IMG/VR virus record: IMGVR_UViG_3300014202_001569
Location: 26,218 to 90,217 of that record
DNA: 64,000 nt
Source: a virus
Direction: 5' to 3' (one strand)
A program made the translations under genes and the position numbers. The notes under the pieces were generated by a model. The model was not told the DNA's origin and made no database searches. It saw only the letters and a list, made by a program, of their open reading frames with translations. Below, piece after piece: positions 27,801 through 46,861 of the stretch (the stretch's first letter is position 1; the number at the start of each line of letters is the position of its first letter).

Positions 27801-28437
27801 TCCATATCCTCTTAATAGTTCTTAAATCGTGACCATAATCATTCATTCTCCATGTAGTCTTTGGCAAACCGTTTATATGATCCAAAAACCGCTCCTCCAT
27901 CGCCAAAAACTCCTCTGGTATATTATAAGAACGATGTGGCAACTCCAACGCATCAGACCACAAAAAATTGAAAAGTAATTCCTCTGGCCTGTCAGCCCTG
28001 TAATAAAACAAATTAGGCCCAATCGACATGCTGGGATACTTCTTTATAGCATACGGCGGCTCGTTTAACTGTTTCGCATGACATAATTCTACCAATTTGA
28101 TCTTCTTAAACTTTTTGAAACTGGTTCCTTTATAGCGGAGGTCCATATGAGTTGATCTACCGAGTATAGAGCCAGGATGACCACTTACCCCCACAAATTC
28201 CGCCGTATGTATAATCCCACTCCGCTCATCATCATTCCGATTTACCTTACGATCCGATTTAGCGTCAGTTGGATATAAAGTTTCCTGTACCCGCCACCAT
28301 GCATCAATCTTCCCATAATAATTCTCCTCGAACGTTGACTCCCGCTCAAAAACATATTGTGGATACGCTAACGGCAATGCAATAATGTCAGCCCGCTCTG
28401 TCGTAAATCCGTAAGCTAATGATTCAATGTCATACAT
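27778..28437 (-). CDS. Hypothetical protein
   Basis: 219-aa ORF. Confidence 0.6.
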   Translation of the reverse strand: MYDIESLAYGFTTERADIIALPLAYPQYVFERESTFEENYYGKIDAWWRVQETLYPTDAKSDRKVNRNDDERSGIIHTAEFVGVSGHPGSILGRSTHMDLRYKGTSFKKFKKIKLVELCHAKQLNEPPYAIKKYPSMSIGPNLFYYRADRPEELLFNFLWSDALELPHRSYNIPEEFLAMEERFLDHINGLPKTTWRMNDYGHDLRTIKRIWNAIHVCG

Positions 28438-28539
28438 GCAATCACTTCGGGGTTGTTAACAAAGTTTATCACCAATTCCCATCATAATCCATCCCAGCGT
28501 AAATTGGTATAAAAAATCTTATAGGTGGTGGAATTTTTG

Positions 28540-28623
28540 GGCGGCGGGAATTTTGGGAATTGGAAAAATTAGTTTTCTTAGATTTGTGCGGGGGAATCAA
28601 AAATCCTGGCGGCGGGAATTTTG
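28540..28623. repeat. 16-bp direct repeat GGCGGCGGGAATTTTG (two copies)
   Basis: Copies at about 28540-28555 and 28608-28623; a degenerate copy at about 28524. Confidence 0.8.
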
Positions 28624-28734
28624 AAATTGACTCTTTAATAAACTCACTGGTATGGCGTCCAGGTAGGGTATCCCTATGTTACTTTTTTAAGGAGAAAATG
28701 AAATTAATTAATCATATTTTAACTCTGCAAGCCA

Positions 28735-28776
28735 ATCATATTAGTATCATTGGGGCATCAATGATACTAATATGAT
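28735..28776. repeat. Perfect 18-bp inverted repeat
   Basis: atcatattagtatcattg-gggcat-caatgatactaatatgat. Confidence 0.9.
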
Positions 28777-28784
28777 ACTGAGCA

Positions 28785-28910
28785 TTAGCACGTCTGCATA
28801 CGCTTGGCCCATCGTATGCTGCGACGATAGGCATAGCTATCGAGTCGTGCTGTCGTGCTGAACCGACGCTTCCGCTTGCTACCATCGACAGTCGCTTGCG
28901 GCTTCTTCAT
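28785..28910 (-). CDS. Cassette mini-ORF (41 aa, basic)
   Basis: Motif, then GGAG, then ATG; MKKPQATVDGSKRKRRF...TC*. Confidence 0.6.
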   Translation of the reverse strand: MKKPQATVDGSKRKRRFSTTARLDSYAYRRSIRWAKRMQTC

Positions 28911-28993
28911 CGCGGGTTCTCCGTTAGGTGTTTGGGCACCTTATAAGGTACAATCGCAATTGTATCATAATGGGGTTGGGCGAACCCCGCTTG

Positions 28994-29164
28994 TTACTTC
29001 CCGAAACAGCAAACGACGGCGAGAGCGATACTGCGTTTGGTCGCTTCGATTTCCCTTACGCGATCCGTATGCCAGGTAGTACCTTCCTTCCATGCTGGCA
29101 TCTTGGCCACTTCCGCTTCGAGCGCTTCGAGATAGTCGTACTTGGCTCGCAGGTTCTTGTCCAT
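28994..29164 (-). CDS. Cassette mini-ORF (56 aa)
   Basis: MDKNLRAKYDYLEALE...FGK*, followed by a hairpin. Confidence 0.65.
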   Translation of the reverse strand: MDKNLRAKYDYLEALEAEVAKMPAWKEGTTWHTDRVREIEATKRSIALAVVCCFGK

Positions 29165-29251
29165 CGTTCGACTCCGTTAGGTGTTTGGGCACCTTACTAG
29201 GTACAATCGCAATTACGATATGTTAAGAGAGTGGGCGAACTCTCTTTAGTT

Positions 29252-29374
29252 TCAGCCATCGCTGAAGCTATCGAGCAGCTTCCGCCGCTGTTTCGGCGTG
29301 GTGAAGATCATGACCATCGTGGCGCAGATGATGAACGCGGGGACGCAAGCCAGGCGGATCAGTGTTTCCTTCAT
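29252..29374 (-). CDS. Cassette mini-ORF (40 aa, one TM)
   Basis: MKETLIRLACVPAFIICATMVMIF...DG*. Confidence 0.6.
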   Translation of the reverse strand: MKETLIRLACVPAFIICATMVMIFTTPKQRRKLLDSFSDG

Positions 29375-29467
29375 CGTCGTTCTCCGTTAGGTTGATTGGG
29401 CACCTTATAAGGTACAATCGCAATTACGATATGAATGGCAGGGTTTGCATTCCCCTGCCCCTCCCCT

Positions 29468-29887
29468 TTAGGGGAGGATTGGCTTATCGTAGTCCCATTG
29501 CTCTTGCCAGCCCTCGCAGACCCGTATGTTATGGGCTTTGATGCCCCTATCTTCCCAATGCGCTGCCTCCACTTCAGCGCCCTTCTGCGTTAGGTGATAG
29601 CTGGAAACATGGTAGTCGGGCGGCGAATCCCAATAGGCGTTGCCCTCGTCATCGTAGTCAAGGCCGTCATCCCAAACGTAGACAATCCAGCACCACTGCG
29701 GTTCAAAGTTATCCCAAGGGTAGCCTTGATAGCGGGCCTTGCGTTCGGCTTCGCGTTCGGCAAGCAGCTCGGCCTGCGCGTCGAGGTCAAGGTAGTTCCA
29801 GTGACGCACGTTCAACCCATGTAGCACGTCGGTCATGTGGTCAAGGTGGCAAGCGGGGGCCATCGGCTCGCGGCGGATAGTGACCAT
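29468..29887 (-). CDS. Cassette ORF, acidic and Trp-rich
   Basis: Motif 29927 and GGAG SD. Confidence 0.7.
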   Translation of the reverse strand: MVTIRREPMAPACHLDHMTDVLHGLNVRHWNYLDLDAQAELLAEREAERKARYQGYPWDNFEPQWCWIVYVWDDGLDYDDEGNAYWDSPPDYHVSSYHLTQKGAEVEAAHWEDRGIKAHNIRVCEGWQEQWDYDKPILP

Positions 29888-29972
29888 TCGACTTCTCCAG
29901 TTGGGGGTTGATTGGGCACCTTATATGGTACAATCGCAATTGTATCATAATGGAGTGGGCGAACTCCAAGCG

Positions 29973-30203
29973 TTACGCTGCTTCCATCGCGGCGACGGTT
30001 CGCGGGAACTCTTGCCGCATCATGTCAGGGCGGGAGAGAAGCAACTTGCCCGCATCCGAACCCATGAACAGGTAGAAGAAGAGACGCTGCTGGTCCGCGT
30101 GACTGAGGCGATACTTGCGGTTGTAGGCGGCGACCTGGAAGCGGAAGTAGATGACAGCGATTGCCAGGGCGACGGCGGCGAGCGCGGCTTCGAGATACTT
30201 CAT
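29973..30203 (-). CDS. Cassette ORF, N-terminal TM, ends -EAA
   Basis: Motif 30240 and SD. Confidence 0.7.
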   Translation of the reverse strand: MKYLEAALAAVALAIAVIYFRFQVAAYNRKYRLSHADQQRLFFYLFMGSDAGKLLLSRPDMMRQEFPRTVAAMEAA

Positions 30204-30291
30204 CGCGTTTCTCCGTTGGGGTGTTTGGGCACCTAACTTGGTACAATTGCAATTAGAGGAGGATTGGGGAGTGGGCGAACTCCCCGTGAGG

Positions 30292-30480
30292 TTAGCTGTC
30301 GCTGTTGAACATACTGCCGATGACAGCGATCAGTGCGGTCAGGACGTGGCCTGCGCAATCCATGAGGTTGAAGGCAATCCAGAAGTTCCAGAAGCCTCCC
30401 TCGCTGGCGTGGTGAAACCAAGCCACCACTAGCACAGCCAGGACCAGGACCAGGGCGATAACCACTAAGACTTCCACCAT
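30292..30480 (-). CDS. Cassette ORF, membrane protein
   Basis: Motif 30517 and GGAGG SD. Confidence 0.7.
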   Translation of the reverse strand: MVEVLVVIALVLVLAVLVVAWFHHASEGGFWNFWIAFNLMDCAGHVLTALIAVIGSMFNSDS

Positions 30481-30568
30481 GACTTCCTCCGAGTTAGGTG
30501 TTTGGGCACCTTACTTGGTACAATCGCAATTAGAGGATGAATGGGGAGTGGGCGAACTCCCCTTCCCT

Positions 30569-30772
30569 TTACCTTGGCACTATGCTAAGCCAAGCCTTGC
30601 GGTTGCTCTCCAGTGCCTCCAGGTTCAATTGCACGGCACGGTCGAGGTCTGCGGTCAGCCCGCCCCGCCCATCGGGGTAAAGGGTACGGCCCTCATGGAC
30701 GATGGCGTATTCGATGCAATCCAGGCGGGTTTCGGCGGCGGTTGCGACTTCGGGCACGATGGCGGTCAGCAT
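30569..30772 (-). CDS. Cassette ORF
   Basis: Start corrected to MLTAIVPE after SD. Confidence 0.65.
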   Translation of the reverse strand: MLTAIVPEVATAAETRLDCIEYAIVHEGRTLYPDGRGGLTADLDRAVQLNLEALESNRKAWLSIVPR

Positions 30773-30847
30773 GGTTCTCTCCGTTGGGGTGTTTGGGCAC
30801 CTTACTTGGTACAATCGCAATTAGAGGATGAATGGGCGAACCGCCCT

Positions 30848-31021
30848 TTACGGGCGGCGGTGGTTCTTGTAGCGGTCGGAACGCGGCTGGCGGGCGGTGG
30901 GCTTGTCATCATAGTAGTTCGGCAGGTTCGCCATGTTACGGGCAGGGCGGGCCATGCCGTCAACGCTGGCGCGGCGTTCTGCGGTGGTCTTGGGACGCTT
31001 CAAACCGAACTGGCTGGCCAT
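30848..31021 (-). CDS. Cassette ORF, basic
   Basis: Start corrected to MASQFGLK. Confidence 0.6.
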   Translation of the reverse strand: MASQFGLKRPKTTAERRASVDGMARPARNMANLPNYYDDKPTARQPRSDRYKNHRRP

Positions 31022-31101
31022 GTTTGGACTCCGTTGGATTGGGCACCTAATATGGTACAATTGCAATTGGGGTATCATTAGGGCATCCTTGCCCTTGCCC
31101 T

Positions 31102-31290
31102 TTACTCCCCCTTCCATTGCCGCTGCTTGCGGGCTTGCTTGACCTTGCGGCGATTGCCACGCTTGTCAGCCATCGCAGCTTGTGCGATTTGGACGCCAAT
31201 CGGGAACAGGTTGCCAGGCTGCACAGTGGCGATGGTGATGGTGAAGCCATCGCGGGACAGACGCTTGCGGGGTTCGGTGGTATTATGCAT
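31102..31290 (-). CDS. Cassette ORF, basic
   Basis: Motif 31311 and GGAGG. Confidence 0.65.
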   Translation of the reverse strand: MHNTTEPRKRLSRDGFTITIATVQPGNLFPIGVQIAQAAMADKRGNRRKVKQARKQRQWKGE

Positions 31291-31358
31291 GTGTTCCTCC
31301 TACCTTAACTGGTACAATTGCAATTAAGGTATGTATGGGCATCCTTGCCCATTTCCCC

Positions 31359-31616
31359 TTAGTCGGTCGTGCGGCAATAGCACCTGTAAGCCTTGCCGTC
31401 GTTGGCGTAGACGATGAGGTTGAAGCTATTGCCGCTCCCATCTTCCCGTTGGATGCTGGACAGCGTGACAGGGATGCCATTGATGGAAATGACGGCGTTG
31501 CGGTTGCTCATTGCGTTGAACAGGGTGAACTTCGTCATGGGCGTTGCACAGCGGGTGAGGCGCTGTTCCATCGTGAGAGCCAGGGTAGCCGAACGGCGAA
31601 CGGTTGAAGTGAGCAT
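31359..31616 (-). CDS. Cassette ORF
   Basis: Start corrected to MLTSTVRR. Confidence 0.6.
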   Translation of the reverse strand: MLTSTVRRSATLALTMEQRLTRCATPMTKFTLFNAMSNRNAVISINGIPVTLSSIQREDGSGNSFNLIVYANDGKAYRCYCRTTD

Positions 31617-31704
31617 CTGCGTTTCTCCGTTTGGGGTGTTTGGGCACCTAATATGGTACAATTGCAATTAGAGAAAGCGGGGTTGGCTTTCCCCCGCTCT
31701 TGCT

Positions 31705-31872
31705 TTACTCCTTCTCGAACAGGATGATACACGGCTTGCCATCGGGATCAGTGCTGACGATAGCATCGTCCACGCTGACGATGGGGCCATCCTTGCGACC
31801 CAGGTAGACACCCATGCCATCGGTCGCGGTTGCCAGCAACTGCCGCAGAGCTTCGACCTTGAGCGTATCCAT
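31705..31872 (-). CDS. Cassette ORF
   Basis: Start corrected to MDTLKVEAL. Confidence 0.65.
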   Translation of the reverse strand: MDTLKVEALRQLLATATDGMGVYLGRKDGPIVSVDDAIVSTDPDGKPCIILFEKE

Positions 31873-31934
31873 TGTTCTCTCCGTTGGGGTGTTTGGGCAC
31901 TTTAAGGGGTACAATCGCAATTAGGGGATGATAC

Positions 31935-31958
31935 AAAAAAGGCAGGGTTTCCCCTGCC
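31935..31958 (-). terminator. Family-A cassette terminator (GGCAGGG-GAAA-CCCTGCC-U6), representative copy
   Basis: + strand aaaaaaggcagggtttcccctgcc; near-identical copies at about 33485, 34088, 34696, 36032 and 37357. Confidence 0.85.
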
Positions 31959-31964
31959 TTTCCT

Positions 31965-32243
31965 TTAGACTACCTTTTCGCACAGTTCATTCAGCTTGCA
32001 GGCGAGGTCGGGGGAGAAGCAATCCCACCGATGTTCGCATTCCTCGGCAATGGCCATGATCTGCCAGGCCACGTCTTCGGGGATATGGAACGTAATGTCC
32101 TCATCGGCGTCCCAATCCAGTTCATTGTCGGGCGGTTCGCAATGCACCCACAGCAGCTTGTAAAGGTCATGCCCGTGGGCATAGCGGTCGCCAACCCAAT
32201 CCAGAGCCTTACGTTCGCCAGCGGTCAGAGTCAGGTGATACAT
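31965..32243 (-). CDS. Cassette ORF, acidic
   Basis: Start corrected to MYHLTLTAG. Confidence 0.7.
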   Translation of the reverse strand: MYHLTLTAGERKALDWVGDRYAHGHDLYKLLWVHCEPPDNELDWDADEDITFHIPEDVAWQIMAIAEECEHRWDCFSPDLACKLNELCEKVV

Positions 32244-32286
32244 GGCTTTCTCCGTTGTTTGGGCACCTAATATGGTACAATTGGAA

Positions 32287-32487
32287 TTAGGCGGCTCCCT
32301 TCTTTTGCCATTCCCATGACCATTCACCAGAGCGCTGTTCAGTGCCGCTGCCCCTTGCCCAATTGCGTATGGTATACATGACGAAGCTGGGGACTTGCGT
32401 GACGTTCTGCATGTAGATTGCTCCCGCCCTTGGGACTGGAACATTGGCGAACTTGACACCGCGACGATAGATGCTGATTTGTTCCAT
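32287..32487 (-). CDS. Cassette ORF ending -GAA
   Basis: Start MEQISIYRR; its stop codon is the TAA of the next motif. Confidence 0.7.
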   Translation of the reverse strand: MEQISIYRRGVKFANVPVPRAGAIYMQNVTQVPSFVMYTIRNWARGSGTEQRSGEWSWEWQKKGAA

Positions 32488-32592
32488 GTTCGACTCCGTT
32501 GGGGTTGTTTGGGCACCTAATATGGTACAATTGCAATTTAGGGGATGATAGGAAAAAAGCGGGGGTGGCATTCCCCCCGCTCCCCCTAACGA

Positions 32593-32829
32593 TTACGCTG
32601 CGGTCTTGCGCCACGGCACGCTACGGCTGCCACGGGTGAAGCCAGTGGATTTGGCATCGGCAAGCCACGTTCGGCCTTCCTCGATGGCGTCATGTGTGCT
32701 GGGGAAGATGCCAGCGCTCTCCCAGCCTACATTGGCCACGCCACCGTCGCGGACATAGGCCACGTTGAAGTCGAATAGCTTGCGTTCGGGGTCGATGAAC
32801 AGCAACAGTTCTGCACGAAGGTCAGGCAT
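32593..32829 (-). CDS. Cassette ORF ending -KTAA
   Basis: Start MPDLRAEL. Confidence 0.7.
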   Translation of the reverse strand: MPDLRAELLLFIDPERKLFDFNVAYVRDGGVANVGWESAGIFPSTHDAIEEGRTWLADAKSTGFTRGSRSVPWRKTAA

Positions 32830-32910
32830 GATACACTCCGTTGGGGATGTGGGCACCTATATTGGTACAATTGCAATTGGAGATGATTAGGGCGTCCTTG
32901 CCCTGCCCCA

Positions 32911-33111
32911 TTAGGCTACCATGTCGCTGAGTTGTTCGCTCTGCCCCTTATTGGCGTTGAAGGGGTAGAGGTAGAAGCCGTGATTGATGGTGTTGCCCAT
33001 CCACCACGTCTGCCCCATGTGCGTTACCAGCATCATATAGCCATTCTTGGCCTTGCGGTAACAGAGGGGGCCGAAGCTGCGGGCGCGTTGCCGACTGATG
33101 TAGACTCGCAT
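32911..33111 (-). CDS. Cassette ORF ending -VA
   Basis: Start MRVYISRQ. Confidence 0.65.
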   Translation of the reverse strand: MRVYISRQRARSFGPLCYRKAKNGYMMLVTHMGQTWWMGNTINHGFYLYPFNANKGQSEQLSDMVA

Positions 33112-33190
33112 GATACTTCTCCAGGGGTTGCGTTGCACCTAATATGGTACAATTGCAATAAGGGAGAAAGGGAGTGGGCGACTCCCTGCC

Positions 33191-33412
33191 TTACGCGGCG
33201 AGCTTGGCGTTGTCCTCGAAGACGGGAAGGGCGAACACCGTGAAGCCCTTCGTGCTACCGTCGATGCTGGTGAGCTTGTCATGGGTTGTCCAGACTTCCT
33301 CGCCACCGATGGCGAGCTTGATGTTGCCGCTGTCCGTTTCGGCAATGCACTTGCCGATCTTGCCGTTGAACAGAAACCGCTTGTTCACAAAGTAGGTCGT
33401 GACTTCCATCAT
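33191..33412 (-). CDS. Cassette ORF ending -KLAA
   Basis: Start MMEVTTYF. Confidence 0.7.
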   Translation of the reverse strand: MMEVTTYFVNKRFLFNGKIGKCIAETDSGNIKLAIGGEEVWTTHDKLTSIDGSTKGFTVFALPVFEDNAKLAA

Positions 33413-33518
33413 CTGCGTTTCTCCGTTTGGGGTGTTTGGGCACTTAACTTGGTACAATTGCAATTAGGGGATGATACAAACGAAAAAAGGCAGGGTTTGC
33501 TGTCCCCTGCCTTACCCC

Positions 33519-33797
33519 TTATTCCTTTTCGGTCAGTTGCGCCTTATGCTTGGCGATGAAGGCGCGAATGTCGGCCTGCATATCCAGCACCTGCTCCCAT
33601 TCGTCGCGGTAGAGCGTGACGGGGAATCGCCGCAAGCCGTCAAGCTGCACGGCACCCTTGGGAGATACCTTGAGGGTGAGCTTCTTCTTCGTCGCGGCCT
33701 TGACCTGTTCCGCCGAATTGTCCTCGATCAGCTTCGCGGCCTGCGCCTCGGTGAGCTTGCCATCCTTGACCTGCTGCATGATTTCGAGTACGTTCAT
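33519..33797 (-). CDS. Cassette ORF (FPVTLY..EW-type hypothetical protein)
   Basis: Motif 33837 and SD. Confidence 0.75.
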   Translation of the reverse strand: MNVLEIMQQVKDGKLTEAQAAKLIEDNSAEQVKAATKKKLTLKVSPKGAVQLDGLRRFPVTLYRDEWEQVLDMQADIRAFIAKHKAQLTEKE

Positions 33798-34116
33798 CTG
33801 CGTTTCTCCGTTTGGGGTTGATTGGGCACCTTATCTGGTACAATTGCAATTAGGGGATGATACGAAAAAAGGGAAGAGAGGCGAACCTCTCTTCCCAATG
33901 GTGAGTTAGCGTCGTCGCCTTGACTGCCATTTTGTGTCGGGCTTAGACCGCCAGTTTACGTCGGGCTTAGACGGGCCACACTTCGCAGGCTCCCCAGCTA
34001 CGGGACGTTTGTAGTGCGGGGTAACGTCCCATCCGACCCCTTCACTACTAATCTTGGTACAATTGCAATTAGGCCATGATGCAAACAAAAAAAGGCAGGG
34101 TTTCCCTGCCTTAGCC

Positions 34117-34347
34117 TTACGCGGCCAGCGCCTTCAAGTCCAGCGTACAGGTGGGGCGCTTGGCGAAGCGGTCGGGAAACCGCCTGAACTCCCGCAAAGC
34201 CTGCACCTCATCCCACCTTCCAGGGATGGTACGCTCCGCGATCACCTCCTTGCCCATGCGGACGTAGATCGTGGTCAGCGTCTTTTTGACGCTGCCGTTG
34301 CGCTGGGTGAAGGTGGACACGCCGACGTTCAGCTTGCCGATCAACAT
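34117..34347 (-). CDS. Cassette ORF ending -ALAA
   Basis: Motif 34384 and SD. Confidence 0.7.
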   Translation of the reverse strand: MLIGKLNVGVSTFTQRNGSVKKTLTTIYVRMGKEVIAERTIPGRWDEVQALREFRRFPDRFAKRPTCTLDLKALAA

Positions 34348-34433
34348 GCGTCAGACTCCGTGGGGTTGTTGGGCACCTAATATGGTACAATTGCAATTTG
34401 AATCATATTGGGAGTGGGCGAACTCCCAATTGT

Positions 34434-34628
34434 TTAGTTCTGGCGATACTTGGCGATAGCTTCCGCCAGCGATGCCTCCATCGTCTTGCCAGCCTGCACG
34501 CCAGCCATCGTGTCATTCCGCAGCTTGCCGAGGTCCATGATGTTGAACTGAATGCAATTGCCCTGCGTGCGGAACGCATCATCGAAAGCCTTCTCCAGCG
34601 CCTTCTCAGCCTTGCTCATTCGTGCCAT
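34434..34628 (-). CDS. Cassette ORF
   Basis: Start MARMSKAE. Confidence 0.7.
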   Translation of the reverse strand: MARMSKAEKALEKAFDDAFRTQGNCIQFNIMDLGKLRNDTMAGVQAGKTMEASLAEAIAKYRQN

Positions 34629-34729
34629 TGTCTTTCTCCGTGTTGGGGTGTTTGGGCACTTAACTTGGTACAATTGCAATTAGGGGATGATAGAAAAAAA
34701 GGCAGGGTTGCTGTCCCCTGCCTCACCCC

Positions 34730-34972
34730 TTAGACCTTTGCCAGCAGCTTCGCCCACTTCTCATGCTGTTTCCAGTGGGCGCAGACGTGTTGTTTCTCCC
34801 GCAAAGCGGTGCGGATACGCTCACGAATCTCATGCGTCTTGTAAGCGTAGGTGCAAGTCGCCCACAAGTCCTCGGAGAAGGCAAGCAAGGTCAAAGCCTG
34901 CTCATACTCCTCATTGTTGACCAGAGCCAGGATAGCGTCTTTCTGGCGGATCAGAGCGTTGTCAAGTTCCAT
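34730..34972 (-). CDS. Cassette ORF
   Basis: Start MELDNAL. Confidence 0.7.
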   Translation of the reverse strand: MELDNALIRQKDAILALVNNEEYEQALTLLAFSEDLWATCTYAYKTHEIRERIRTALREKQHVCAHWKQHEKWAKLLAKV

Positions 34973-35061
34973 GTTCGACTCCGTTAGTTGGGCACCTAAC
35001 TTGGTACAATCGCAATTAGAGGATGAATGGGGCAAGGTTTGCTTTCCCTTGCCCTTCCCCT

Positions 35062-35415
35062 TTACTTTAGGTAGACAATACCATGTGCGGTCAGGCACTT
35101 GCCGAAGTCATCGGAGAACACGCTGCCCCGTGCGTGCTTTGCGGGGGCTTTGAAGCCAGCCGCCTTATGAATGTCGCCCGCCTTGAGAGCGCCAAGCGTT
35201 TTGGTGAAGCCGTCTTGCAGGCAGATGAAGCAATAGACGCTAGTTGGTTCCCGCTTGCCGTTGCGTTCCTCCAGCACCACGACACGCGCCCACTTGTCAC
35301 TGATGAAGTCAGCGCGATGGGTGGGAGGTGCGGAGTAAGTGTAGCCCATCTGCTTCCAGTGTTCCGCCGTCACTTCGTCGGCCCGCGTCACAAAGGCGTC
35401 GATGCGATCTTTCAT
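35062..35415 (-). CDS. Cassette ORF, conserved phage hypothetical protein
   Basis: Start MKDRIDAF; SVYCFI...GDIHKAAGFKAPAKHARGSVF. Confidence 0.75.
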   Translation of the reverse strand: MKDRIDAFVTRADEVTAEHWKQMGYTYSAPPTHRADFISDKWARVVVLEERNGKREPTSVYCFICLQDGFTKTLGALKAGDIHKAAGFKAPAKHARGSVFSDDFGKCLTAHGIVYLK

Positions 35416-35461
35416 GATTCTCTCCGTTGGGGTTTGGGCACCTAACTTGGTACAATTGGAA

Positions 35462-35638
35462 TTAGGCCACTTGGTATTCGTGTTCCCCAATAACAATCAT
35501 ACCACCGAAGAATTGCCACGTTGGGCTTGACGCCAGTGCCGCTGTATGCTCTTTCTCCAGAGCAGGCATATCGGCCTTGATTTGTTCCGCCGTCAAGTCC
35601 TCACGGGTGTCACGATGATACGCTGCGATGATCTTCAT
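35462..35638 (-). CDS. Cassette ORF ending -VA
   Basis: Start MKIIAAYH; stop codon fused to the motif. Confidence 0.65.
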   Translation of the reverse strand: MKIIAAYHRDTREDLTAEQIKADMPALEKEHTAALASSPTWQFFGGMIVIGEHEYQVA

Positions 35639-35715
35639 GGTCAACTCCAGGGTTTGGGCACCTTACATGGTACAATCGCAATTAGGGTATAAAGGGAGTG
35701 GGCGACTCCCTGCCC

Positions 35716-35967
35716 CTAATCCCCTTCGTAGTCTGGCCCATAGTGATTCTCGAAGTCCTCCATTTCCTGGCGTTCGAGGATAACGTCGTGCGCCAATTCC
35801 GCATCCCAACTATCCTCGAAGTTGTCCTCATCGTCATCATCGTCATCATCGAAGATGGAAGGGCCGTCGCCATCGGAACAGCAAGGGCAAGGCGGGTCGC
35901 AAACGTCGCAGCGATTGTTGCCGTTGCAATCCTGGTCCAGTTCGTTACCGCAACCACAGTAAGGCAT
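35716..35967 (-). CDS. Cassette ORF, Cys-rich N-terminus and hyper-acidic C-terminus
   Basis: CGC..C....C..C.PPCPCC followed by a DDDDDDDEDNFED tract. Confidence 0.7.
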   Translation of the reverse strand: MPYCGCGNELDQDCNGNNRCDVCDPPCPCCSDGDGPSIFDDDDDDDEDNFEDSWDAELAHDVILERQEMEDFENHYGPDYEGD

Positions 35968-36063
35968 GGCGTTCTCCAGTTTGGGGTTCGTTGCACCTAA
36001 TATGGTACAATTGCAATTAGGGGATGATAAGAAAAAAGGCAGGGTTTCCCCTGCCCTTCCCCT

Positions 36064-36324
36064 TTACGCGGCGGCTTTGGCGGCTTGTTTCGGTGTCTTC
36101 TTGGCATGGGATGCCAGGATGCCTCGCACCTCGACGGATTCGAGTAGGATGTGCCGCAACACGTTGTCGATGTTGCCGCGACGGACTAACTCCGAACCAA
36201 TCGAAGACGCCAGAAGCGCTTTCAGCTTCTCCAGTGCCTCGCATTCCGTTTCGTGGCGACGCGCTTCATCGCGGTTGGTGAATTGCTTGCCGTCAGCGGT
36301 CTGAAACAGAGAAACAACCTTCAT
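36064..36324 (-). CDS. Cassette ORF ending -KAAA
   Basis: FQTADGKQFTNRDEARRHE N-terminus. Confidence 0.75.
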   Translation of the reverse strand: MKVVSLFQTADGKQFTNRDEARRHETECEALEKLKALLASSIGSELVRRGNIDNVLRHILLESVEVRGILASHAKKTPKQAAKAAA

Positions 36325-36375
36325 GGCAAAACTCCAGGGGTTTAGTGTTACACACCTTTACTGGTACAATTGGAA

Positions 36376-36576
36376 TTAGACACCAGCTGCCAGTGACGCC
36401 ACATACTGGAAGCGATAGACAAACCATTTGTCGCGGCTGTCTTCGGGCCGCACGCGGATTACCTTGCGGTCATGGACGTAACTCGCGTGCAGAGCGGCAG
36501 AGCGGGAGCAACTGGCCTGATAGATACCCTTGTAGCACCAGTGCCGACCGTACTTGATTTCCACTTCAAACCGCAT
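36376..36576 (-). CDS. Cassette ORF
   Basis: Motif 36610; stop codon fused to the next motif. Confidence 0.7.
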   Translation of the reverse strand: MRFEVEIKYGRHWCYKGIYQASCSRSAALHASYVHDRKVIRVRPEDSRDKWFVYRFQYVASLAAGV

Positions 36577-36656
36577 GGTAGACTCCGTTAGGTGTTGGGC
36601 ACCTATTATGGTACAATTGCAATTAGGGTATTATTAGGGCATCCTTGCCCTGCCCC

Positions 36657-36920
36657 TTAGACCATTGCCTTGCCACGCTTGCCGTCGATGCAATCCTTTG
36701 CGGTGCGATACCATTCCGTGCCATCGGACCATGCACGCCATTTCTTGCCGTAGTTGTTCGGGTCGGGATGCCCTGACAGCATGAAGAAGCCAGGAACGCT
36801 CCAGAGGTAGACGGTATCGCCATTGGCCAATGCTGCTTCCAGGTCGGGAGCAAGGGCCGCATAGGGGCGCTTACCGCCAGGGGAAAGGTAGTCACGCAGC
36901 TTGAAGTCTACTTTCGCCAT
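36657..36920 (-). CDS. Cassette ORF
   Basis: Start MAKVDFKL. Confidence 0.7.
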   Translation of the reverse strand: MAKVDFKLRDYLSPGGKRPYAALAPDLEAALANGDTVYLWSVPGFFMLSGHPDPNNYGKKWRAWSDGTEWYRTAKDCIDGKRGKAMV

Positions 36921-37002
36921 GATTGACTCCAGTTTGGGTATCGTTGCACCTATTATGGTACAATCGCAATTAGGGTATAATGGAGTGGGCGACTCCATTG
37001 CC

Positions 37003-37299
37003 CTACGCTGCCTTTTGCTTGGCAAGAAGCCATTCGTAGGCTTGTGCCCAGGCATATTCGCGGTCGAAGCGGCCCCAACCGAAATCCCCGCAAGGATGTG
37101 CCTCAAAGTAATGCGGGCTTTTGTCGAGAGTAAACTTGATGCTGCATTCCGCCATGCCGTCGTTGAAGATGTGTTCTTGCCACTGATAGCCCGCTGCCAG
37201 GAACGCTTTCTGAATCTTTTCGATCATGACTGACTCCTTTGGGGTTGCGTTGCACCTAACATGGTAGCCCTTTGCGTCACACATCAGAAGCCATCGCAT
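37003..37299 (-). CDS. Fused cassette ORF ending -KAA (internal second start at 37227)
   Basis: MRWLLMCDAKG is in frame with MIEKIQKAF across a half-motif. Confidence 0.6.
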   Translation of the reverse strand: MRWLLMCDAKGYHVRCNATPKESVMIEKIQKAFLAAGYQWQEHIFNDGMAECSIKFTLDKSPHYFEAHPCGDFGWGRFDREYAWAQAYEWLLAKQKAA

Positions 37300-37387
37300 T
37301 GCTATTCTCCTTTGCGTTGCACCTATTATGGTACAATTGCAATTAGGGGATGATAGGAAAAAAGGCAGGGTTTCCCCTGCCTTCCCG

Positions 37388-37630
37388 TTAGGCGGCGATT
37401 TTCTCGGTAACGTCGAAGAGAAGCCATTCCTTGGCATTGGCTGGCGTGATGTAGAAGAAATCCCACAGACCATGCTTGACTGGCAACTGCCATTCCGTGG
37501 GACGAGTTTTCCACGTTTTCAGCTTGCCATTGACACGGCAGCGCTTGGCCGAACCATCCGAATTGCGGGCGGTCTTGTGGTAGATCGTCTTGCCCTTGTA
37601 GAAACCAGCGGCCAATTCCTTCGTAATCAT
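37388..37630 (-). CDS. Cassette ORF ending -KIAA
   Basis: Start MITKELAA; RVNGKLKTWKTRP motif. Confidence 0.75.
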   Translation of the reverse strand: MITKELAAGFYKGKTIYHKTARNSDGSAKRCRVNGKLKTWKTRPTEWQLPVKHGLWDFFYITPANAKEWLLFDVTEKIAA

Positions 37631-37751
37631 TCCATTCTCCAGTGGGGTTGTTGGGCACCTATTATGGTACAATTGCAATTGAGACGGGAGTGGCGTAGGT
37701 TTGCCTACCTTACGCTGACAGCACCACGCTGCCAGGCCACTCCCGCCTCGT

Positions 37752-37931
37752 TTACGCTACATACAACCCTGTTTCACCCTTGACCACGGTGACGCAATCC
37801 GCTTCCGTTTCGAGCAGGGACGCTTCATTGCTACTCACGATATAGCTGCGCCACTTGCCACCTTGCCCTTCGTTGTAGGGCTTCCACTTGTCCCACATCT
37901 CCTGCAACAGTTCATCGCGTTCGTCAGGCAT
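37752..37931 (-). CDS. Cassette ORF ending -VA
   Basis: Start MPDERDEL. Confidence 0.65.
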   Translation of the reverse strand: MPDERDELLQEMWDKWKPYNEGQGGKWRSYIVSSNEASLLETEADCVTVVKGETGLYVA

Positions 37932-38029
37932 TTCATTCTCTCCATTTGGGGTTTGGGCACCTAATATGGTACAATTGCAATTAGGGGATGATACGAAAAA
38001 AAGCGGGGTTGGCTGTCCCCCGCTCTCCC

Positions 38030-38209
38030 CTAGATATTGTTGCCCCTGCTCCCGCACCACTCATTCTGCGGCCCGTCATCATCGTCAATCATGGGGCAGG
38101 CAGCACTCCAGCGGGAGTATTCTTCCATTGCCTCATTGTATTCATCGTAGCAAACCTCATCACAGAACTCGCGTTCGCCGCAGGGCTTCTGGCAGAATCG
38201 ACAGGCCAT
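38030..38209 (-). CDS. Cassette ORF, Zn-binding and acidic
   Basis: MACRFCQKPC..EFCDEVC. Confidence 0.65.
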   Translation of the reverse strand: MACRFCQKPCGEREFCDEVCYDEYNEAMEEYSRWSAACPMIDDDDGPQNEWCGSRGNNI

Positions 38210-38259
38210 TGTTCTCTCCAGGTTAGGACTTCGTTGCACCTATATTGGTACAATTGGAA

Positions 38260-38538
38260 TTACAAGTCCTTTTTCCGTGGCACGTCGTTGATGGTGTAAG
38301 TGAACTTGATGCGCTTCCGCTCACAGTAACGCCAGAGTGCCTCCTGCTTGTTGCGGTTGGGCAGCTTGCCGTTCTTTTCAAGCCAATTGGCTGCGGAGTC
38401 CATCCAGGCGCTATCATACCCATAGGCATAGTCCACCTTATGGGCTAGTTCATCGTCAATCATGATGACGACGGAATGATAGGTCTGCCCTTTGCGCTTG
38501 TTGAACCAGCGGCAGCCGTGCAATTCGAGCGTTTTCAT
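38260..38538 (-). CDS. Hypothetical protein
   Basis: Start MKTLELHG; YAYGYDSAW motif. Confidence 0.7.
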   Translation of the reverse strand: MKTLELHGCRWFNKRKGQTYHSVVIMIDDELAHKVDYAYGYDSAWMDSAANWLEKNGKLPNRNKQEALWRYCERKRIKFTYTINDVPRKKDL

Positions 38539-38539
38539 G

Positions 38540-38734
38540 TTAGTTTCCTTTGCAATGCGGGCAAGCGATAGCACCGACGCCAGGGACAGCGGTTTTGCCA
38601 CGGTAAGAATTGGCACGCACCCGCGTTTCATTCTTGCAGGCACCGCACTTATAGACGAACACGGTTCGCCAAGGCGGTTGGAAATCGCGGACACGTTCGG
38701 AGCGTACTGGCGTTGACAGGTTCAGAGTGTTCAT
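38540..38734 (-). CDS. Zn-ribbon mini-protein
   Basis: CGAC...CPHC. Confidence 0.7.
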   Translation of the reverse strand: MNTLNLSTPVRSERVRDFQPPWRTVFVYKCGACKNETRVRANSYRGKTAVPGVGAIACPHCKGN

Positions 38735-38796
38735 TTGGTTTCTCCTTACCTATACTGGTACAATTGCAATTAGAGGACAATTGGGCGATTGCCTCC

Positions 38797-39057
38797 TTAC
38801 AGTAGAACCACCACGTTCATTCCGTCCAGTCGCCGCTCAACCCACTCTAGCACTTCGGCCCGATACAATTCGGTGACTTCGTGTTCTGCAAGCAACACCT
38901 CGCAATAGGCGTTGATGCTGTCATCGTGTTCCTTGATACGTTCGTCCTGCCCATCGGCGTCGAAATGGGCATCATACTTCAAGACGGCATCAGCGGCATT
39001 GTGGCCAGCGATGACACCTTGGACGCCATCACAGTTCTTGACGTGGAACACTGGCAT
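38797..39057 (-). CDS. Cassette ORF, acidic
   Basis: Start MPVFHVKN (or MTMPV at 39063). Confidence 0.65.
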   Translation of the reverse strand: MPVFHVKNCDGVQGVIAGHNAADAVLKYDAHFDADGQDERIKEHDDSINAYCEVLLAEHEVTELYRAEVLEWVERRLDGMNVVVLL

Positions 39058-39197
39058 TGTCATTCTCCGTTTGATTGGGCACCTAATATGGTACAATTGC
39101 AATTAGGTTTGGCCAAAAGAAAAACCCCACGGGATTGTTCCCGTGGGGTTTCGATCAGCCTTCCCCTCCTATATCGGTGTAGAGGTCATCCAGCCAC

Positions 39198-39374
39198 TTA
39201 TCCTGCTTTTCGTCGCTCGGCACCGTCGTCTTCGTTTGCGGGTCGCTCATTGGCGTTTCGTTCCTCGAATTGTCGGATTTGTTCTTTCTCGGCACGGGTC
39301 CAATCCTTTTCGCCACGGTGAACGGGTCGAATCTTGCCACCACTCTTGTCATACTGATTACGGTTCCAGCCCAT
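39198..39374 (-). CDS. Cassette ORF, charged
   Basis: Start MGWNRNQY. Confidence 0.55.
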   Translation of the reverse strand: MGWNRNQYDKSGGKIRPVHRGEKDWTRAEKEQIRQFEERNANERPANEDDGAERRKAG

Positions 39375-39423
39375 GATACTCTCCGTTGATTGATCGCCAC
39401 TCTCTGTTTGGTACAATTGGAAT

Positions 39424-39516
39424 TTACAGTGCCTTGATACAGAACCGAATCAGGCCGTAGGCAAAACTGCCCATCACCACGATGTAGAGCAGGACCAGAC
39501 CAAGTTGATTTTCCAT
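39424..39516 (-). CDS. 30-aa single-TM peptide
   Basis: MENQLGLVLLYIVVMGSFAYGLIRFCIKAL*; stop codon abuts the motif. Confidence 0.55.
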   Translation of the reverse strand: MENQLGLVLLYIVVMGSFAYGLIRFCIKAL

Positions 39517-39662
39517 TCTGCACCTTTTGGGTTTGAGTTCGTTGCACCTTATCTGGTACAATTGCAATTAGAGGATGATACGAAAAAAGGCAAGGGGTGA
39601 TGTCCCCTTGCCTCAAATTTTAGTTAATTGCCCTTTACGGGGGCGGTCTTGCGGCTTTATTG

Positions 39663-39947
39663 CTACGAATTGAGGTCGGCAATGGTGTAGAGCCATTCAG
39701 ACTTAGGAAGGCTGAGCGTCTTGGATTGAGCAATGCCAAGCTCGGTTGGCAAAATACTCCAGTAGTTCCCAGCGCTTCCTGTTTGGCGTATGAGGCCAGC
39801 ATCGGACAAGTGCAACAAAGTAAGCAAGCACTTACGAAAACAAACACGCCAACCAGAAACATGATCGCGGTGATTACATTCCTCCCATGTATGCACAAGG
39901 TCAAGTAGGATGCGACTCGCCAGACGGTTCTGAGCCAAGTTGAGCAT
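39663..39947 (-). CDS. Hypothetical protein (frame uncertain)
   Basis: Start MLNLAQNR downstream of motif 39990; an alternative overlapping frame exists. Confidence 0.4.
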   Translation of the reverse strand: MLNLAQNRLASRILLDLVHTWEECNHRDHVSGWRVCFRKCLLTLLHLSDAGLIRQTGSAGNYWSILPTELGIAQSKTLSLPKSEWLYTIADLNS

Positions 39948-39948
39948 G

Positions 39949-40188
39949 TTAGCCCTTTTTGCGTTTCTTCTTCTTGCCACACTCATCTTGGTACAATTGC
40001 AATTCCTGCTCGCTCACCTCGTCGTCCGTCCATTCAGGCACCACCACGGGCGGCACGGGCTTCAAACTGGCGGAACAGTGGACGCCATTAGGCCGCAAAC
40101 CCCCGCCCTGATGATCGACAAAGCTCTTGTCTGGAGTGTAAGACACCAAACTCCTACACTCCAGACAGTAGGCCACGCTATAGACCAT
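39949..40188 (-). CDS. Zn-finger-like ORF with the motif inside its 3' end
   Basis: CLEC...HC; ELQLYQ is the translated motif. Confidence 0.6.
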   Translation of the reverse strand: MVYSVAYCLECRSLVSYTPDKSFVDHQGGGLRPNGVHCSASLKPVPPVVVPEWTDDEVSEQELQLYQDECGKKKKRKKG

Positions 40189-40423
40189 CCTTCAACTCCT
40201 CTTTGAAGTCATCCCAATAGTCGTCGGGCAAGTCATTCTCTTCGGGCGGATACAACTGAGCCATGATGAAAGCCGTGTACGCCGCCGTTCCAGGCTGAGG
40301 CCCATTCGGACCAAAATCCGTCTTGATGCCCTGGCAACACACGCAGTCCTTATGACAGGACACAGCACGATCTTCACACGTCTCATGATCGTTATGATCG
40401 GGATGTTCGCATTTCATGTTCAT
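40178..40423 (-). CDS. Leaderless Cys/His-rich acidic ORF
   Basis: ATG exactly 9 nt after GTACC. Confidence 0.7.
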   Translation of the reverse strand: MNMKCEHPDHNDHETCEDRAVSCHKDCVCCQGIKTDFGPNGPQPGTAAYTAFIMAQLYPPEENDLPDDYWDDFKEELKDGL

Positions 40424-40446
40424 GCCCTTTTTGGTACAATTGGAAT

Positions 40447-40647
40447 TTAGGCCGCTTTCCCGATGACAACCTTTGCCATACCCATCAACGTGCGGGCAAT
40501 GGCATCCTGTCTGTCAATCGCCTGCACCTTGTAGAGCGTAATCAAGGTAGGCGACAACGCATCCTGCACTAACTTGCGGAACACTCGCACCTTGTAGCCC
40601 TGGCTTGGATAGCACGGATGATACACTTCGACGTAGAACTCTTTCAT
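40447..40647 (-). CDS. Cassette ORF ending -GKAA
   Basis: Motif 40670 and AAGGAG. Confidence 0.7.
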   Translation of the reverse strand: MKEFYVEVYHPCYPSQGYKVRVFRKLVQDALSPTLITLYKVQAIDRQDAIARTLMGMAKVVIGKAA

Positions 40648-40682
40648 GTTTGTTCTCCTTACCTAAACTGGTACAATTGGAA

Positions 40683-40871
40683 TTAGAAGGGGATTTCTTC
40701 TTCCACTTTGTTCCACGTTGCCCGATAGGTAGCGACTCTGGCGACTTCATCGCTCCGAACCCATTCGCCCTTGAGTTGCGGGGGCTTGCAGCACAGTATC
40801 AACCGATGAAAGTTCCCTTCCTTCTGATGCGCCACCACGTCATCCCCGAACTCATCAATCGTTTCGTGCAT
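40683..40871 (-). CDS. Cassette ORF
   Basis: Start MHETIDEF. Confidence 0.65.
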   Translation of the reverse strand: MHETIDEFGDDVVAHQKEGNFHRLILCCKPPQLKGEWVRSDEVARVATYRATWNKVEEEIPF

Positions 40872-40951
40872 GTTTGTTTTCTCCTTACCCAAACTGGTAC
40901 AATCGCAATTAGCCCTAAACGAAAAAGGGCGGGATTGCTCCCGCCCCACCC

Positions 40952-42061
40952 CTACTTCTTATTGAATAAACCCTTCAAGATGGAATCTTCCGCCTTCAAC
41001 CATACCTCCTTGAGCGGAACCTTATGCTTGCGGGCATTGAACAACACGCCAGTAAACACCGTCTCACCCTCAATCAAGATGGCAAAATCCTTCTGGTTCT
41101 CTTCATCCTTGACGCAGTGCCACAACGATTCCAATTCATTGTAAGCACCATCTACCTTGCCCTTGTAATGCTTGAAACAATCCGTAATTTCAGGATACGT
41201 CGCAAGCAATTCGTCGCCTTCACCCTCCAAGATGAACGGCAACAGAGTCGAAGGATTGTAAAGCGCGTCACCATTCGCACCCTTCATCTTATGCAGCGAT
41301 AGATAACGCTTGTTCTTGATCTTCCAACGACGGTTCGCGTCATCCTTCACAACGCAACCTTCCCACGTCGCTTCTGGCTGCGAATTGACGTAATCCGTTA
41401 CGTCGTCAGCACTTCGGAGCGAATACTGGCCAACCGTCTTGAACAGTGGGACATTTTGCGGGCCAACTTCTTCTTCGCCACAGAATGCGGAAAGCTGGTA
41501 GACGCACGGCTGAGCATACTCCCGAACCACCTTGTTCCAAAGGGAGCAAAACTCGCAAGCGTAACTCAACGAAGGATCAAGGTACAATTGTAATTCTTGC
41601 AAGTCCTTGATGCCCAGCGCCTGTAAGATACCTTCCTTCCAGGTGAAGGAAGCTGGCATCTTATGGTAGTTCGCCTGCCATTCGGTGTTGAACATGCCCA
41701 TGTTCGCGTAGGAACCACGGGTATTCACACGCCATTCGCCATCGAAGTGATAGAACAGCAGCAAGCTGCCGTCTACCTTCTCCAGCGCAACAGACTTATC
41801 CCAATTGAACAGCGGCATTTCGTCCGCTACTTCACCCCAATTGAAAAATCGGGGGAAGGCACGCGCCACCAGCGAATGGTCCTCAGTGTTGAGAACTAAG
41901 CCACGGCATTCGCGGACAATGGGATCAGTCTTCGGAGAGTCGATTTGGCTATAGTTCAGGATAGCCAGGGGAAGCGTATCATGGCGATTGACGGAGATAT
42001 GTAGTTCCGTTTCCAGGTCCGTCAGAGTCTTGCCAGAACGCAGATAGTCGATAGTCTTCAT
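40952..42061 (-). CDS. rnl1: RNA ligase, T4 Rnl1 family
   Basis: RECRGLVL, RAFPRFFNWGE, EKVDGS (adenylation Lys), EGCVV, KIKNKRY. Confidence 0.9.
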   Translation of the reverse strand: MKTIDYLRSGKTLTDLETELHISVNRHDTLPLAILNYSQIDSPKTDPIVRECRGLVLNTEDHSLVARAFPRFFNWGEVADEMPLFNWDKSVALEKVDGSLLLFYHFDGEWRVNTRGSYANMGMFNTEWQANYHKMPASFTWKEGILQALGIKDLQELQLYLDPSLSYACEFCSLWNKVVREYAQPCVYQLSAFCGEEEVGPQNVPLFKTVGQYSLRSADDVTDYVNSQPEATWEGCVVKDDANRRWKIKNKRYLSLHKMKGANGDALYNPSTLLPFILEGEGDELLATYPEITDCFKHYKGKVDGAYNELESLWHCVKDEENQKDFAILIEGETVFTGVLFNARKHKVPLKEVWLKAEDSILKGLFNKK

Positions 42062-42120
42062 TTTCTTTCTCCTCTAATCTAATTGGTACAATCGCAATTA
42101 GAGGAGAAAGGGACGGCCCC

Positions 42121-42510
42121 TTATTGGGGGCCATCTTCCTGCTTTCTCCTCTTTTTGGGTGTTGCCAGTGGCATCATGGGAGGCATTCCGCCTTGCTGTT
42201 GCTTGGCACCGTCCTGCTGCGCCTTGACGAACTCTTCCGTAACACGCATCAGGTTCAGGTATCGACAGTCCAGGGTCAGAACAGGTTCACTCGGATCAGA
42301 CAAAAGTTTGCCCACAAAGTAGGGCAGGCAAATTGCCTGAATGTGCAAGCTCTGGCCCATGATCGGCGCACCGTCTTCCGTCTTTTTCAGGTTGTAGACG
42401 CAGACGTACTGGCCAACCTCAAGATCGTCTTCCGCCAGCATCACCCCCACGCGCTTGCGAGGCGTTTCTTCCATCGCGTCGTCATAGTCTTCTTGTTCTT
42501 GTCCAATCAT
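42121..42510 (-). CDS. Hypothetical protein
   Basis: Motif 42547 and GGAG SD. Confidence 0.65.
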   Translation of the reverse strand: MIGQEQEDYDDAMEETPRKRVGVMLAEDDLEVGQYVCVYNLKKTEDGAPIMGQSLHIQAICLPYFVGKLLSDPSEPVLTLDCRYLNLMRVTEEFVKAQQDGAKQQQGGMPPMMPLATPKKRRKQEDGPQ

Positions 42511-42559
42511 CGCTTTCTCCAGTTAAGGTTAGTTACACCCTAGATTGGTACAATTGCAA

Positions 42560-42805
42560 TTAAATCGCCATCCGTTCTGACAACCAGTTAGGAATGGAGT
42601 CCGCTGAACCGTTGTATACATACTGCCCATTACTAGACCACTTGAAAAAGTGAAAGTTGTCGTTCTGGACATTATAAACGGCAATGCGGTCTAAGTCAAC
42701 CACGTTAAAGTAGCGGACGCCATAGAACTTACAAATCCCTTCGACCGTTCTTAAAGCGTCCACCAGCTTGATTACTTCTCCCAAGGGGCTTTCGACGCTA
42801 GACAC
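42560..42805 (-). CDS. Hypothetical protein
   Basis: ORF track; stop codon fused to the motif. Confidence 0.55.
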   Translation of the reverse strand: MSSVESPLGEVIKLVDALRTVEGICKFYGVRYFNVVDLDRIAVYNVQNDNFHFFKWSSNGQYVYNGSADSIPNWLSERMAI

Positions 42806-43212: not shown

Positions 43213-43428
43213 GTTTGCTCCTTTTGATTGCCCATTATATCTGGTACAATCGCAATTAGCAAGAGAGGGGAAAAGGGCGGGTTTGCTGTCCCCGCCCGCA
43301 TCATCAAAGCTGTCTAATTAAGTGTCGGCACTTGATTTCGGGCGCTAGAGGCCAACCCCCTAGCGCCCAGCTATCAGCCGCAGAATAGGTATGTTCCTTG
43401 CATTTAATATCATTTAAGGTTTCCTTTG

Positions 43429-43632: not shown

Positions 43633-43661
43633 TGCAAGCCTCCGAATAGAGAAAAGGTCAG

Positions 43662-43736: not shown

Positions 43737-43743
43737 ATAACAG

Positions 43744-43830: not shown

Positions 43831-43863
43831 ATTTGGGCGACACCTAGTTTGGTACAATTGCAA

Positions 43864-44082: not shown

Positions 44083-44092
44083 GTTAGCTCCT

Positions 44093-44263: not shown

Positions 44264-44264
44264 G

Positions 44265-46847: not shown

Positions 46848-46861
46848 GATTGTGTAAGTTA

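Follow-up and report, generated by a model that had tools for sequence, protein, structure and literature searches.

A one-strand array of small-gene cassettes in a phage genome record, with repeated joints as probable recombination substrates

Promoter-early stem-loop (PeSL) cassettes are known from the T4-type phages RB49/phi1, PST/T4, and nt-1/KVP40 (Arbiol et al. 2010, PMC2839356; Comeau et al. 2014, PMC4122927). A system of similar design is described here at positions 28947-40909 of a 64,000-nucleotide stretch of viral DNA, hereafter the window, which covers positions 245,656-309,655 of the 340,934-bp IMG/VR virus record G000. Here, 39 copies of a conserved motif precede small genes on the minus strand, and each copy sits in a composite intergenic joint. 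The favored reading, held at a probability of about 70%, is that the stretch is the variable end of an array of one-gene promoter/terminator cassettes, and that the joints double as substrates for homologous recombination.

The array and PeSL are alike in several respects. Both are built on a composite intergenic module of about 100 bp in which a promoter, a stem-loop, and a Shine-Dalgarno site are combined. Both cluster in hyperplastic regions, where they precede small orphan open reading frames (ORFans). In both, modules flank indels and replacements between relatives, and the proposed mechanism is alike. The two differ in promoter class, with a lineage-specific single block of ~25 bp in the array and a sigma70-like promoter in PeSL. 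The array phage is not T4-type, as it encodes a DnaE-like polymerase, has a genome of more than 340 kb, and has as its nearest named relative the 595-kb "uncultured phage" LR756511.1 (65% amino-acid identity). The array is also larger, with 39 joints in 12 kb and ~81-97 per genome against ~52 in phi1. Its units all point in one direction, and its joints split into two independently assorting modules. Because promoter class, phage group, and scale differ, the array is best taken as an analogue of PeSL and not as a member of the PeSL family. In the literature searched, PeSL-type cassettes are described for T4-like phages only, and no such arrays were found in huge or jumbo phages.

Relatives of G000 were found in IMG/VR and metagenomes with one gene as the anchor:

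40952-42061, minus strand: T4 Rnl1-like RNA ligase gene, bordering the dense part of the array on its upstream side

The array and its joints

The window contains 68 matches to GGTACAATYGCAAT with at most two mismatches, against 1.04 expected, and 66 of these are on one strand. Written on the minus strand, the motif is ATT[G/C]C[A/G]ATTGTACC. A preliminary description had counted 39 copies in about 12 kb, and the scan returns exactly 39 at 28947-40909. As a correction to that description, the stretch is no more than the distal third of the array. The whole record holds ~81 motif copies at 274.6-336 kb, an array of ~62 kb with all units in the same direction. Across these 81 copies, positions -24 to -9 are invariant or almost so, and the information content over -24 to -1 exceeds 30 bits. 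Three lone copies lie outside the array, at G000 positions 90,606 (+), 109,735 (-), and 243,854 (+). Elsewhere in IMG/VR, the exact G000 motif gives single chance matches only, and in LR756511.1 it occurs at control level.

28785-64000, minus strand: window part of the one-strand cassette array, with 66 motif copies to 63680; the array runs on to genome position 336,040
28947-40909, minus strand: dense distal stretch of 39 cassettes, one per ~307 bp, with open reading frames (ORFs) of 30-139 aa, GC to 0.57, and third-position GC (GC3) of 0.49-0.88

Each unit is composed of a stop codon, a hairpin, a 10-nt spacer, the motif, 9 nt (A..TWAGGT), a leader, GGAG, ATG, and an ORF of 30-139 aa. The order from stop codon to leader is the one first described. 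Spacers are of the types TCATCCCCTA, TCATCCTCTA, and TTATACCCTA, with variants. Leaders are GCCCAA.., GCAACG.., a short AAGGAG, or absent. Hairpin, spacer, motif, leader, and GGAG are all present in 30 of the 39 joints, and the hairpin is missing from the other nine. Seven of these nine carry the ATTCCAATTGTACC variant of the motif.

The three hairpin families named in the preliminary description all exist. Family 1, GGCAGGGG..CCCTGCC with a T-run, has ~13 copies and looks like an intrinsic terminator. About one third of the joints have such a GC-rich hairpin and U-run directly upstream of the motif. Family 2 (GGAGT-TCGCCC-ACTCC, ~11 copies) and family 3 (GGGCA-AGGA-TGCCC, 4 copies) have no U-run. 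Family 2 is also found in the relatives G001, G002, L062, and L063, where the (T)CGCCC loop is kept and the stems vary in a compensatory manner between lineages (GGGAGT/ACTCCC, GGGAG/CTCCC, CAGGGT/ACCCTG, and GGGAA/TTCCC). This pattern suggests a sequence-specific site for protein or RNA recognition rather than a plain terminator.

36004-36017, minus strand: example of the predicted promoter core, ATTGCAATTGTACC
36029-36055, minus strand: family 1 hairpin (GGCAGGGG-AAA-CCCTGCC) with U-run
30543-30562, minus strand: family 2 hairpin (GGGGAGT-TCGCCC-ACTCCCC), no U-run
36637-36650, minus strand: family 3 hairpin (GGGCA-AGGA-TGCCC), no U-run
36363-36378, minus strand: hairpin-less joint with the variant ATTCCAATTGTACC; the upstream stop codon overlaps its 5' edge
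35968-36003, minus strand: example of an initiation region, with the 9 nt ATATTAGGT, the predicted +1 G, and a GCAACG-type leader with GGAG; the ATG is at 35967
31614-31668, minus strand: predicted promoter with the GCCCAAACACCCCAAACGGAGAAACGCAG-ATG leader, the end of which is common to unrelated ORFs at 33412 and 33797

In G000, hairpin type is tied to the 5' subtype of the promoter motif (Cramer's V 0.75, p=0.0002). Joints with no hairpin pair with ATTCCA and family 1 joints with ATTGCA. For family 2, the partner is mostly ATTGCG. Leader type and hairpin type are independent (p=0.56). The joint therefore behaves as two modules fused at an invariant core. The combinatorial mixing proposed at the outset thus holds between leader and hairpin, but the hairpin does not mix freely with the 5' part of the motif. 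The same leader can serve different genes, as had been noted: the end GGAGAAACGCAG-ATG is identical at 31616, 33412, and 33797, and the ORFs behind it are unrelated. Array ORFs in general are not paralogous. Paralogy as the origin of joint similarity was considered and rejected, because the ORFs are unrelated to one another.

Cassette turnover between relatives

The preliminary description proposed PeSL-like shuffling, under which related genomes should not carry collinear and invariant arrays, and they do not. Homologues anywhere in the 159-kb relative G001 exist for only 15 of 38 distal cassettes; in the part of the array upstream of these, the figure is 27 of 39 (p=0.012, Fisher test). Some cassettes that G001 lacks are present in L057 or L063, which are more distant. 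The Pfam scan of cassette ORFs covered the array genes upstream of 42100 and the RNA ligase anchor, so the ORFan status of the distal stretch is judged solely by homology to relatives. Single cassettes are also relocated. Relative to the 38734-like gene, the 117-aa cassette listed below comes first in L057 and second in G001, and in G000 it stands 3 kb downstream.

35062-35415, minus strand: 117-aa cassette found at three array positions, in G000, G001 (83505), and L057 (12109)
31607-31883, minus strand: whole cassette (ORF 31872-31705 with its joint), skipped in a contig of a ~90-95% alike strain (run X3)

The skipped cassette sits in G000 between two copies of the GCCCAAACACCCCAA leader. Contigs of ~90-95% alike strains, assembled from public runs, also have joint types replaced between unchanged ORFs, and homology stops at 39107, the upstream edge of the putative promoter. 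Between G000 and G001, orthologues often differ in leader or hairpin type, even where both neighbors are conserved. G001 also contains a tandem duplicate in which both copies share sequence up to the core. Before the first copy, at G001 81,060-81,090, lies a degenerate promoter of the L057/G000 type (..GTTTGTACC TTT..), which might be the trace of a cassette imported from another lineage.

The finest comparison is that of G001 with its closer relative G002, made over 16 cassettes with orthologues 63-93% identical. The two differ by five unit-step events that involve whole cassettes and end inside joints, with direct joint repeats of 18-64 bp on their flanks. One is a replacement flanked by a 29-bp direct repeat of spacer and core. 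In an insertion, the flanking repeat is the 18-bp hairpin of family 2. One is an extra cassette flanked by a 64-bp repeat of core and leader that runs through the ATG with one mismatch. The remaining two are a translocation and a difference at the array end. We infer that such events are probably the footprints of homologous exchange between direct repeats, with crossover points that vary along the joint.

The joints also evolve in concert. Exact identity between pairs of joints reaches 50 bp in G000 and 84 bp in G001, over a span that begins at the stop codon and takes in hairpin, spacer, core, and leader. Exact matches, measured as the longest common substring, are longer between joints at most two units apart than between distant joints (p=0.0004 in G000, p=0.0002 in G001, and p=0.002 in LR756511.1). 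The Hamming distance of fixed segments gives a weak signal, and the longest-common-substring test is the clearer one. A similarity that depends on distance is not expected from functional constraint alone. Leader families are private to lineages and spread over unrelated genes. GCCCA leaders number 26 in G000, 0 in G001, 0 in L057, and 1 in L063, and [AG]TAAC and GT[AG]GC leaders number 32 in G001 against 4 in G000.

Under the favored reading, the ~62-kb one-strand array would be a row of self-contained expression cassettes whose genes are probably early or middle genes, and the stretch would be the end of it that varies most. A cassette would comprise a single-block promoter, a C/A-rich leader with GGAG (or none), a small ORF, and a hairpin, with or without a U-run, followed by the spacer. 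Because 25-84 bp of joint sequence is directly repeated about every 300 bp, the joints would offer substrates for homologous recombination. Exchange between joints could delete, duplicate, relocate, or import whole cassettes, presumably with circular by-products, and could also copy joint modules from one cassette to another. The crossover could fall anywhere in the joint, whether in the hairpin, in spacer and core, or in core and leader. Shuffling by a PeSL-like route is in this way supported by the cassette flux and by the events that joint repeats flank; the recombination itself is read from these footprints.

A lineage-specific motif and the competing explanations

The most likely role of the motif is that of a phage-specific promoter, in a single block that spans -24 to -1. 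The motif is strictly strand-specific and precedes nearly every array gene. Leaderless genes, 13 in G000 and 16 in G001, have their ATG exactly 10 nt after the core, at the predicted +1. The same spacing is seen in L057, L059, L062, and L063, for six lineages in all. A purine stands at +1 in 77 of the 86 G000 copies. Instead of a -35/-10 pair, the motif forms one block, and its sequence varies between related phages. Sigma70-like sites number 7 against 9.3 expected, none of them at joints, which agrees with the first impression that the promoter is of another class. The terminator-like hairpin and U-run upstream of the motif would fit termination followed by re-initiation in each unit.

Every relative has the same layout, with its own core at the equivalent place:

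G001 (159 kb; ligase 82% identical): core ATTGRGGTTGTACT, 97 forward and 3 reverse copies
L057: core CTCCAGTTGTACC
L059: core TTCCAGCTGTACT
L062 and L063: core CTTAGCTGTACC
LR756511.1: core TAAAGCTGTACT, 55 copies in the first 20 kb, a region of 0.51 GC
More distant contigs: GACACC-type blocks

In one orthologue pair, at 46649 in the window and 74642 in G001, the private leader is identical and the core alone differs. From this it follows that ~80-100 promoters per genome changed together.

The T7 group (T7, T3, SP6, and K11) has phage-specific promoter sets that are read by single-subunit RNA polymerases. Its promoters resemble the motif in being a single conserved block that runs up to the start site, where +1 is a purine, and in having a consensus of their own in each lineage, with all copies in a genome changed together. 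The array differs in having 5-10 times more copies, in pairing promoters with terminators in one-gene units, and in that no T7-like polymerase gene (PF00940) was found in G000, G001, or LR756511.1. Phage sigma-factor cascades are the other known model, with SPO1 gp28 and gp33/34 and T4 gp55 as examples. LR756511.1 resembles these in its sigma70-family genes, of which one follows a sigma70-like promoter on the upstream side of the array and another follows the array motif. The motif differs in being one block and not a -35/-10 pair, and a link between sigma factor and motif is conjectural. Another parallel is halovirus HF2, where intergenic repeats are reported to carry promoters (PMC8707807). 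In both virus genomes, repeated intergenic sequences would act as promoters, with the activity predicted in the case of the array. As described, the HF2 promoters differ in being archaeal, AT-rich, and TATA-type, with few copies and no cassette array (PMC8707807).

The three sigma70-family proteins of LR756511.1 are encoded at 299.7-300.2 kb, 153.1 kb, and 464.5 kb. A 165-aa sigma with regions 2 and 4 lies behind the sigma70-like promoter, 6.5 kb upstream of the first motif, and a 333-aa protein lies behind the array motif. The third, of 186 aa, has region 2 only and has an orthologue at 136 kb in G000 (178 aa, region 2 only). G000 has two paralogues with region 2 only, at 135.8-136.3 kb and ~66.1 kb. 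A search of the final 5 kb of the G000 record for a sigma factor at the array head found none, and no homologue of the region 2 and 4 sigma was detected in the available parts of G000 or G001. These genes suggest a sigma cascade on the host core enzyme as a reasonable lead, nothing more.

Several points weigh against the reading of the array as recombining expression cassettes. The strain evidence comes from assembled contigs, and assemblers may break or misjoin at repeats of at least 31 bp. Near-identical independent assemblies (L119 against G000 and L056 against G001, with one mismatch in 18-20 kb each) have no rearrangement, so turnover is not fast at that scale. Viable indels must end in intergenic DNA, and because joints flank every gene, the position of an indel is weak evidence by itself; the flanking direct repeats carry the argument. 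One feature shows that non-homologous deletion, without joint homology, also acts:

37225-37345, minus strand: deletion scar, composed of a full joint, an 11-codon stub, and the 3' half of a second joint (..TACC ATGTTAGGT GCAACG..), in frame with the next ORF

On the expression side, hairpin families 2 and 3 lack a U-run and hence may not be terminators. The transcription start 10 nt after GTACC, the promoter activity, and the terminator activity are predicted from sequence. RNA polymerase families PF00940 and PF00562 have no match in G000, G001, or the 595-kb LR756511.1; G000 and G001 are partial records, and for PF00940 the control genomes themselves lack such a gene.

In one rival account, the array is expression architecture and nothing else. 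Uniform selection would act on each sub-element, turnover would come from illegitimate recombination filtered to intergenic sites, and the joints would have no special role. The core and the GGAG site are plainly functional, selection alone predicts intergenic breakpoints, and both the stable near-identical assemblies and the deletion scar fit. This account is nevertheless unlikely. The exact identity of 50-84 bp extends over positions that no plausible constraint would hold fixed, for example the bases that follow the stop codon and the leader's 3' end. Joint similarity depends on distance, private leader families extend over unrelated genes, and direct joint repeats bound the indels.

Two further explanations have very little probability. 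In one, the motif is an RNA processing signal, and a long transcript is cut 10 nt past it into single-gene mRNAs with hairpins that protect the 3' ends. Families 2 and 3 would suit such protection, cleavage could likewise yield leaderless 5'-AUG ends, and no polymerase or factor has been found for the motif. The canonical hairpin and U-run terminators upstream of the motif in about one third of joints would, however, end the long transcript. An invariant, unstructured recognition sequence of 16 nt with a purine at +1 is typical of promoters, and the cores differ between lineages much as phage promoter specificities have diverged. In the other, which is equally remote, the joint is a mobile element of the MITE or REP kind, or the array is integron-like with a dedicated recombinase. 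The array does resemble an integron in its one-way rows of small, unrelated, strain-variable genes between hairpin-bearing repeats, and one hairpin variant occurs ~20 times in G001. It differs from an integron in that each unit has its own promoter. Tyrosine recombinases (PF00589) are absent from G000 and G001, both partial records, and the integron model was rejected on this ground. The hairpins form short, perfect stems and lack the imperfect, bipartite structure that attC has, and neither terminal inverted repeats nor target duplications are seen. Indel ends vary along the joint, in keeping with homology-driven rather than site-specific exchange.

Genome context and meaning

G000 has 42% GC and encodes a portal, a large terminase, and the DnaE-like polymerase. 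Source habitats are moss and sediment. Its recombination genes are a RecA/UvsX-like protein, an SbcC-like nuclease, and a branch-migration helicase. Megablast against a GenBank phage collection found no close DNA relatives. A 1191-aa protein without an assigned function (P0001, G000 93,538-97,113) has an identical copy on a 623-kb contig. The G000 record is therefore a fragment of a huge phage, and the complete genome is probably ~620 kb. Large proteins of 1831, 1341, 1191, 1055, and 803 aa have no match in Pfam, PHROG, or PDB sequences. For the 1191-aa protein, there was no usable atlas match, and a single homologue was found, at 50% identity. A D.DGD motif in this protein was dropped, as about one such match is expected by chance.

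The array also contains an RNA repair and translation set, made up of an AAA_33 kinase-like protein, the T4 Rnl1-like RNA ligase, a short CCA-adding enzyme, two tRNAs, and a small tmRNA:

42772-43212, 40952-42061, 62956-63645, 43662-43830, 46709-46847: window coordinates listed for the set

The two tRNAs and the tmRNA are the only Rfam matches, and all lie outside the 28947-40909 stretch. One unit in the stretch has no ORF:

33851-34069, minus strand: predicted promoter and terminator unit without an ORF; its first 95 nt are 86% identical to the L057 unit 14197-14291

This unit is more conserved than the adjacent coding genes and has no Rfam match. The identity of its first 95 nt makes it a candidate small RNA. 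Another conserved non-coding stretch, of ~350 nt, lies inside the array of G001 at 92,927-93,278, with one motif copy inverted. It is also present in G002 and, as the reverse complement, at L179 3434-3760.

The array is a GC-rich island (window 28001-48000 compared with 1-28000), with GC to 0.57 and GC3 to 0.88 against 0.40-0.43 in the rest of the genome. GC climbs toward the distal end and then falls abruptly at ~28.8 kb. Equivalent gradients exist in G001, from 0.59 down to 0.40, and in LR756511.1, with 0.51 against 0.42. The richness may reflect host-like codon use in early genes before phage tRNAs are made. The island may also be the reason for the "provirus" label on the IMG/VR record.

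A broader proposal is tentative and stands at well below even odds. It holds that a clade of huge phages, LR756511.1 included, expresses its many small genes from 80-130 copies of a private promoter "barcode" that is read by a phage-encoded specificity factor. The barcode would change from one lineage to the next in all copies at once and would double as a homology address for cassette exchange. If so, expression and recombination compatibility would be coupled, and each lineage would own a semi-private, fast-shuffling pool of GC-rich, host-codon-like early genes.

The compact 25-bp promoter set, with its matched terminators and leaders, may be a source of orthogonal expression parts. For a phage group of uncharacterized transcription, the motif is a clean candidate promoter, and the array is a natural example of ~100 promoters that shift specificity together. 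PeSL-type logic would operate at a much larger scale in environmental huge phages, on a non-host promoter that differs in each lineage. Small early phage genes are the usual home of anti-defense and host-takeover functions. For very large phage genomes, exchange between joints would offer a concrete mechanism by which such genes turn over rapidly.

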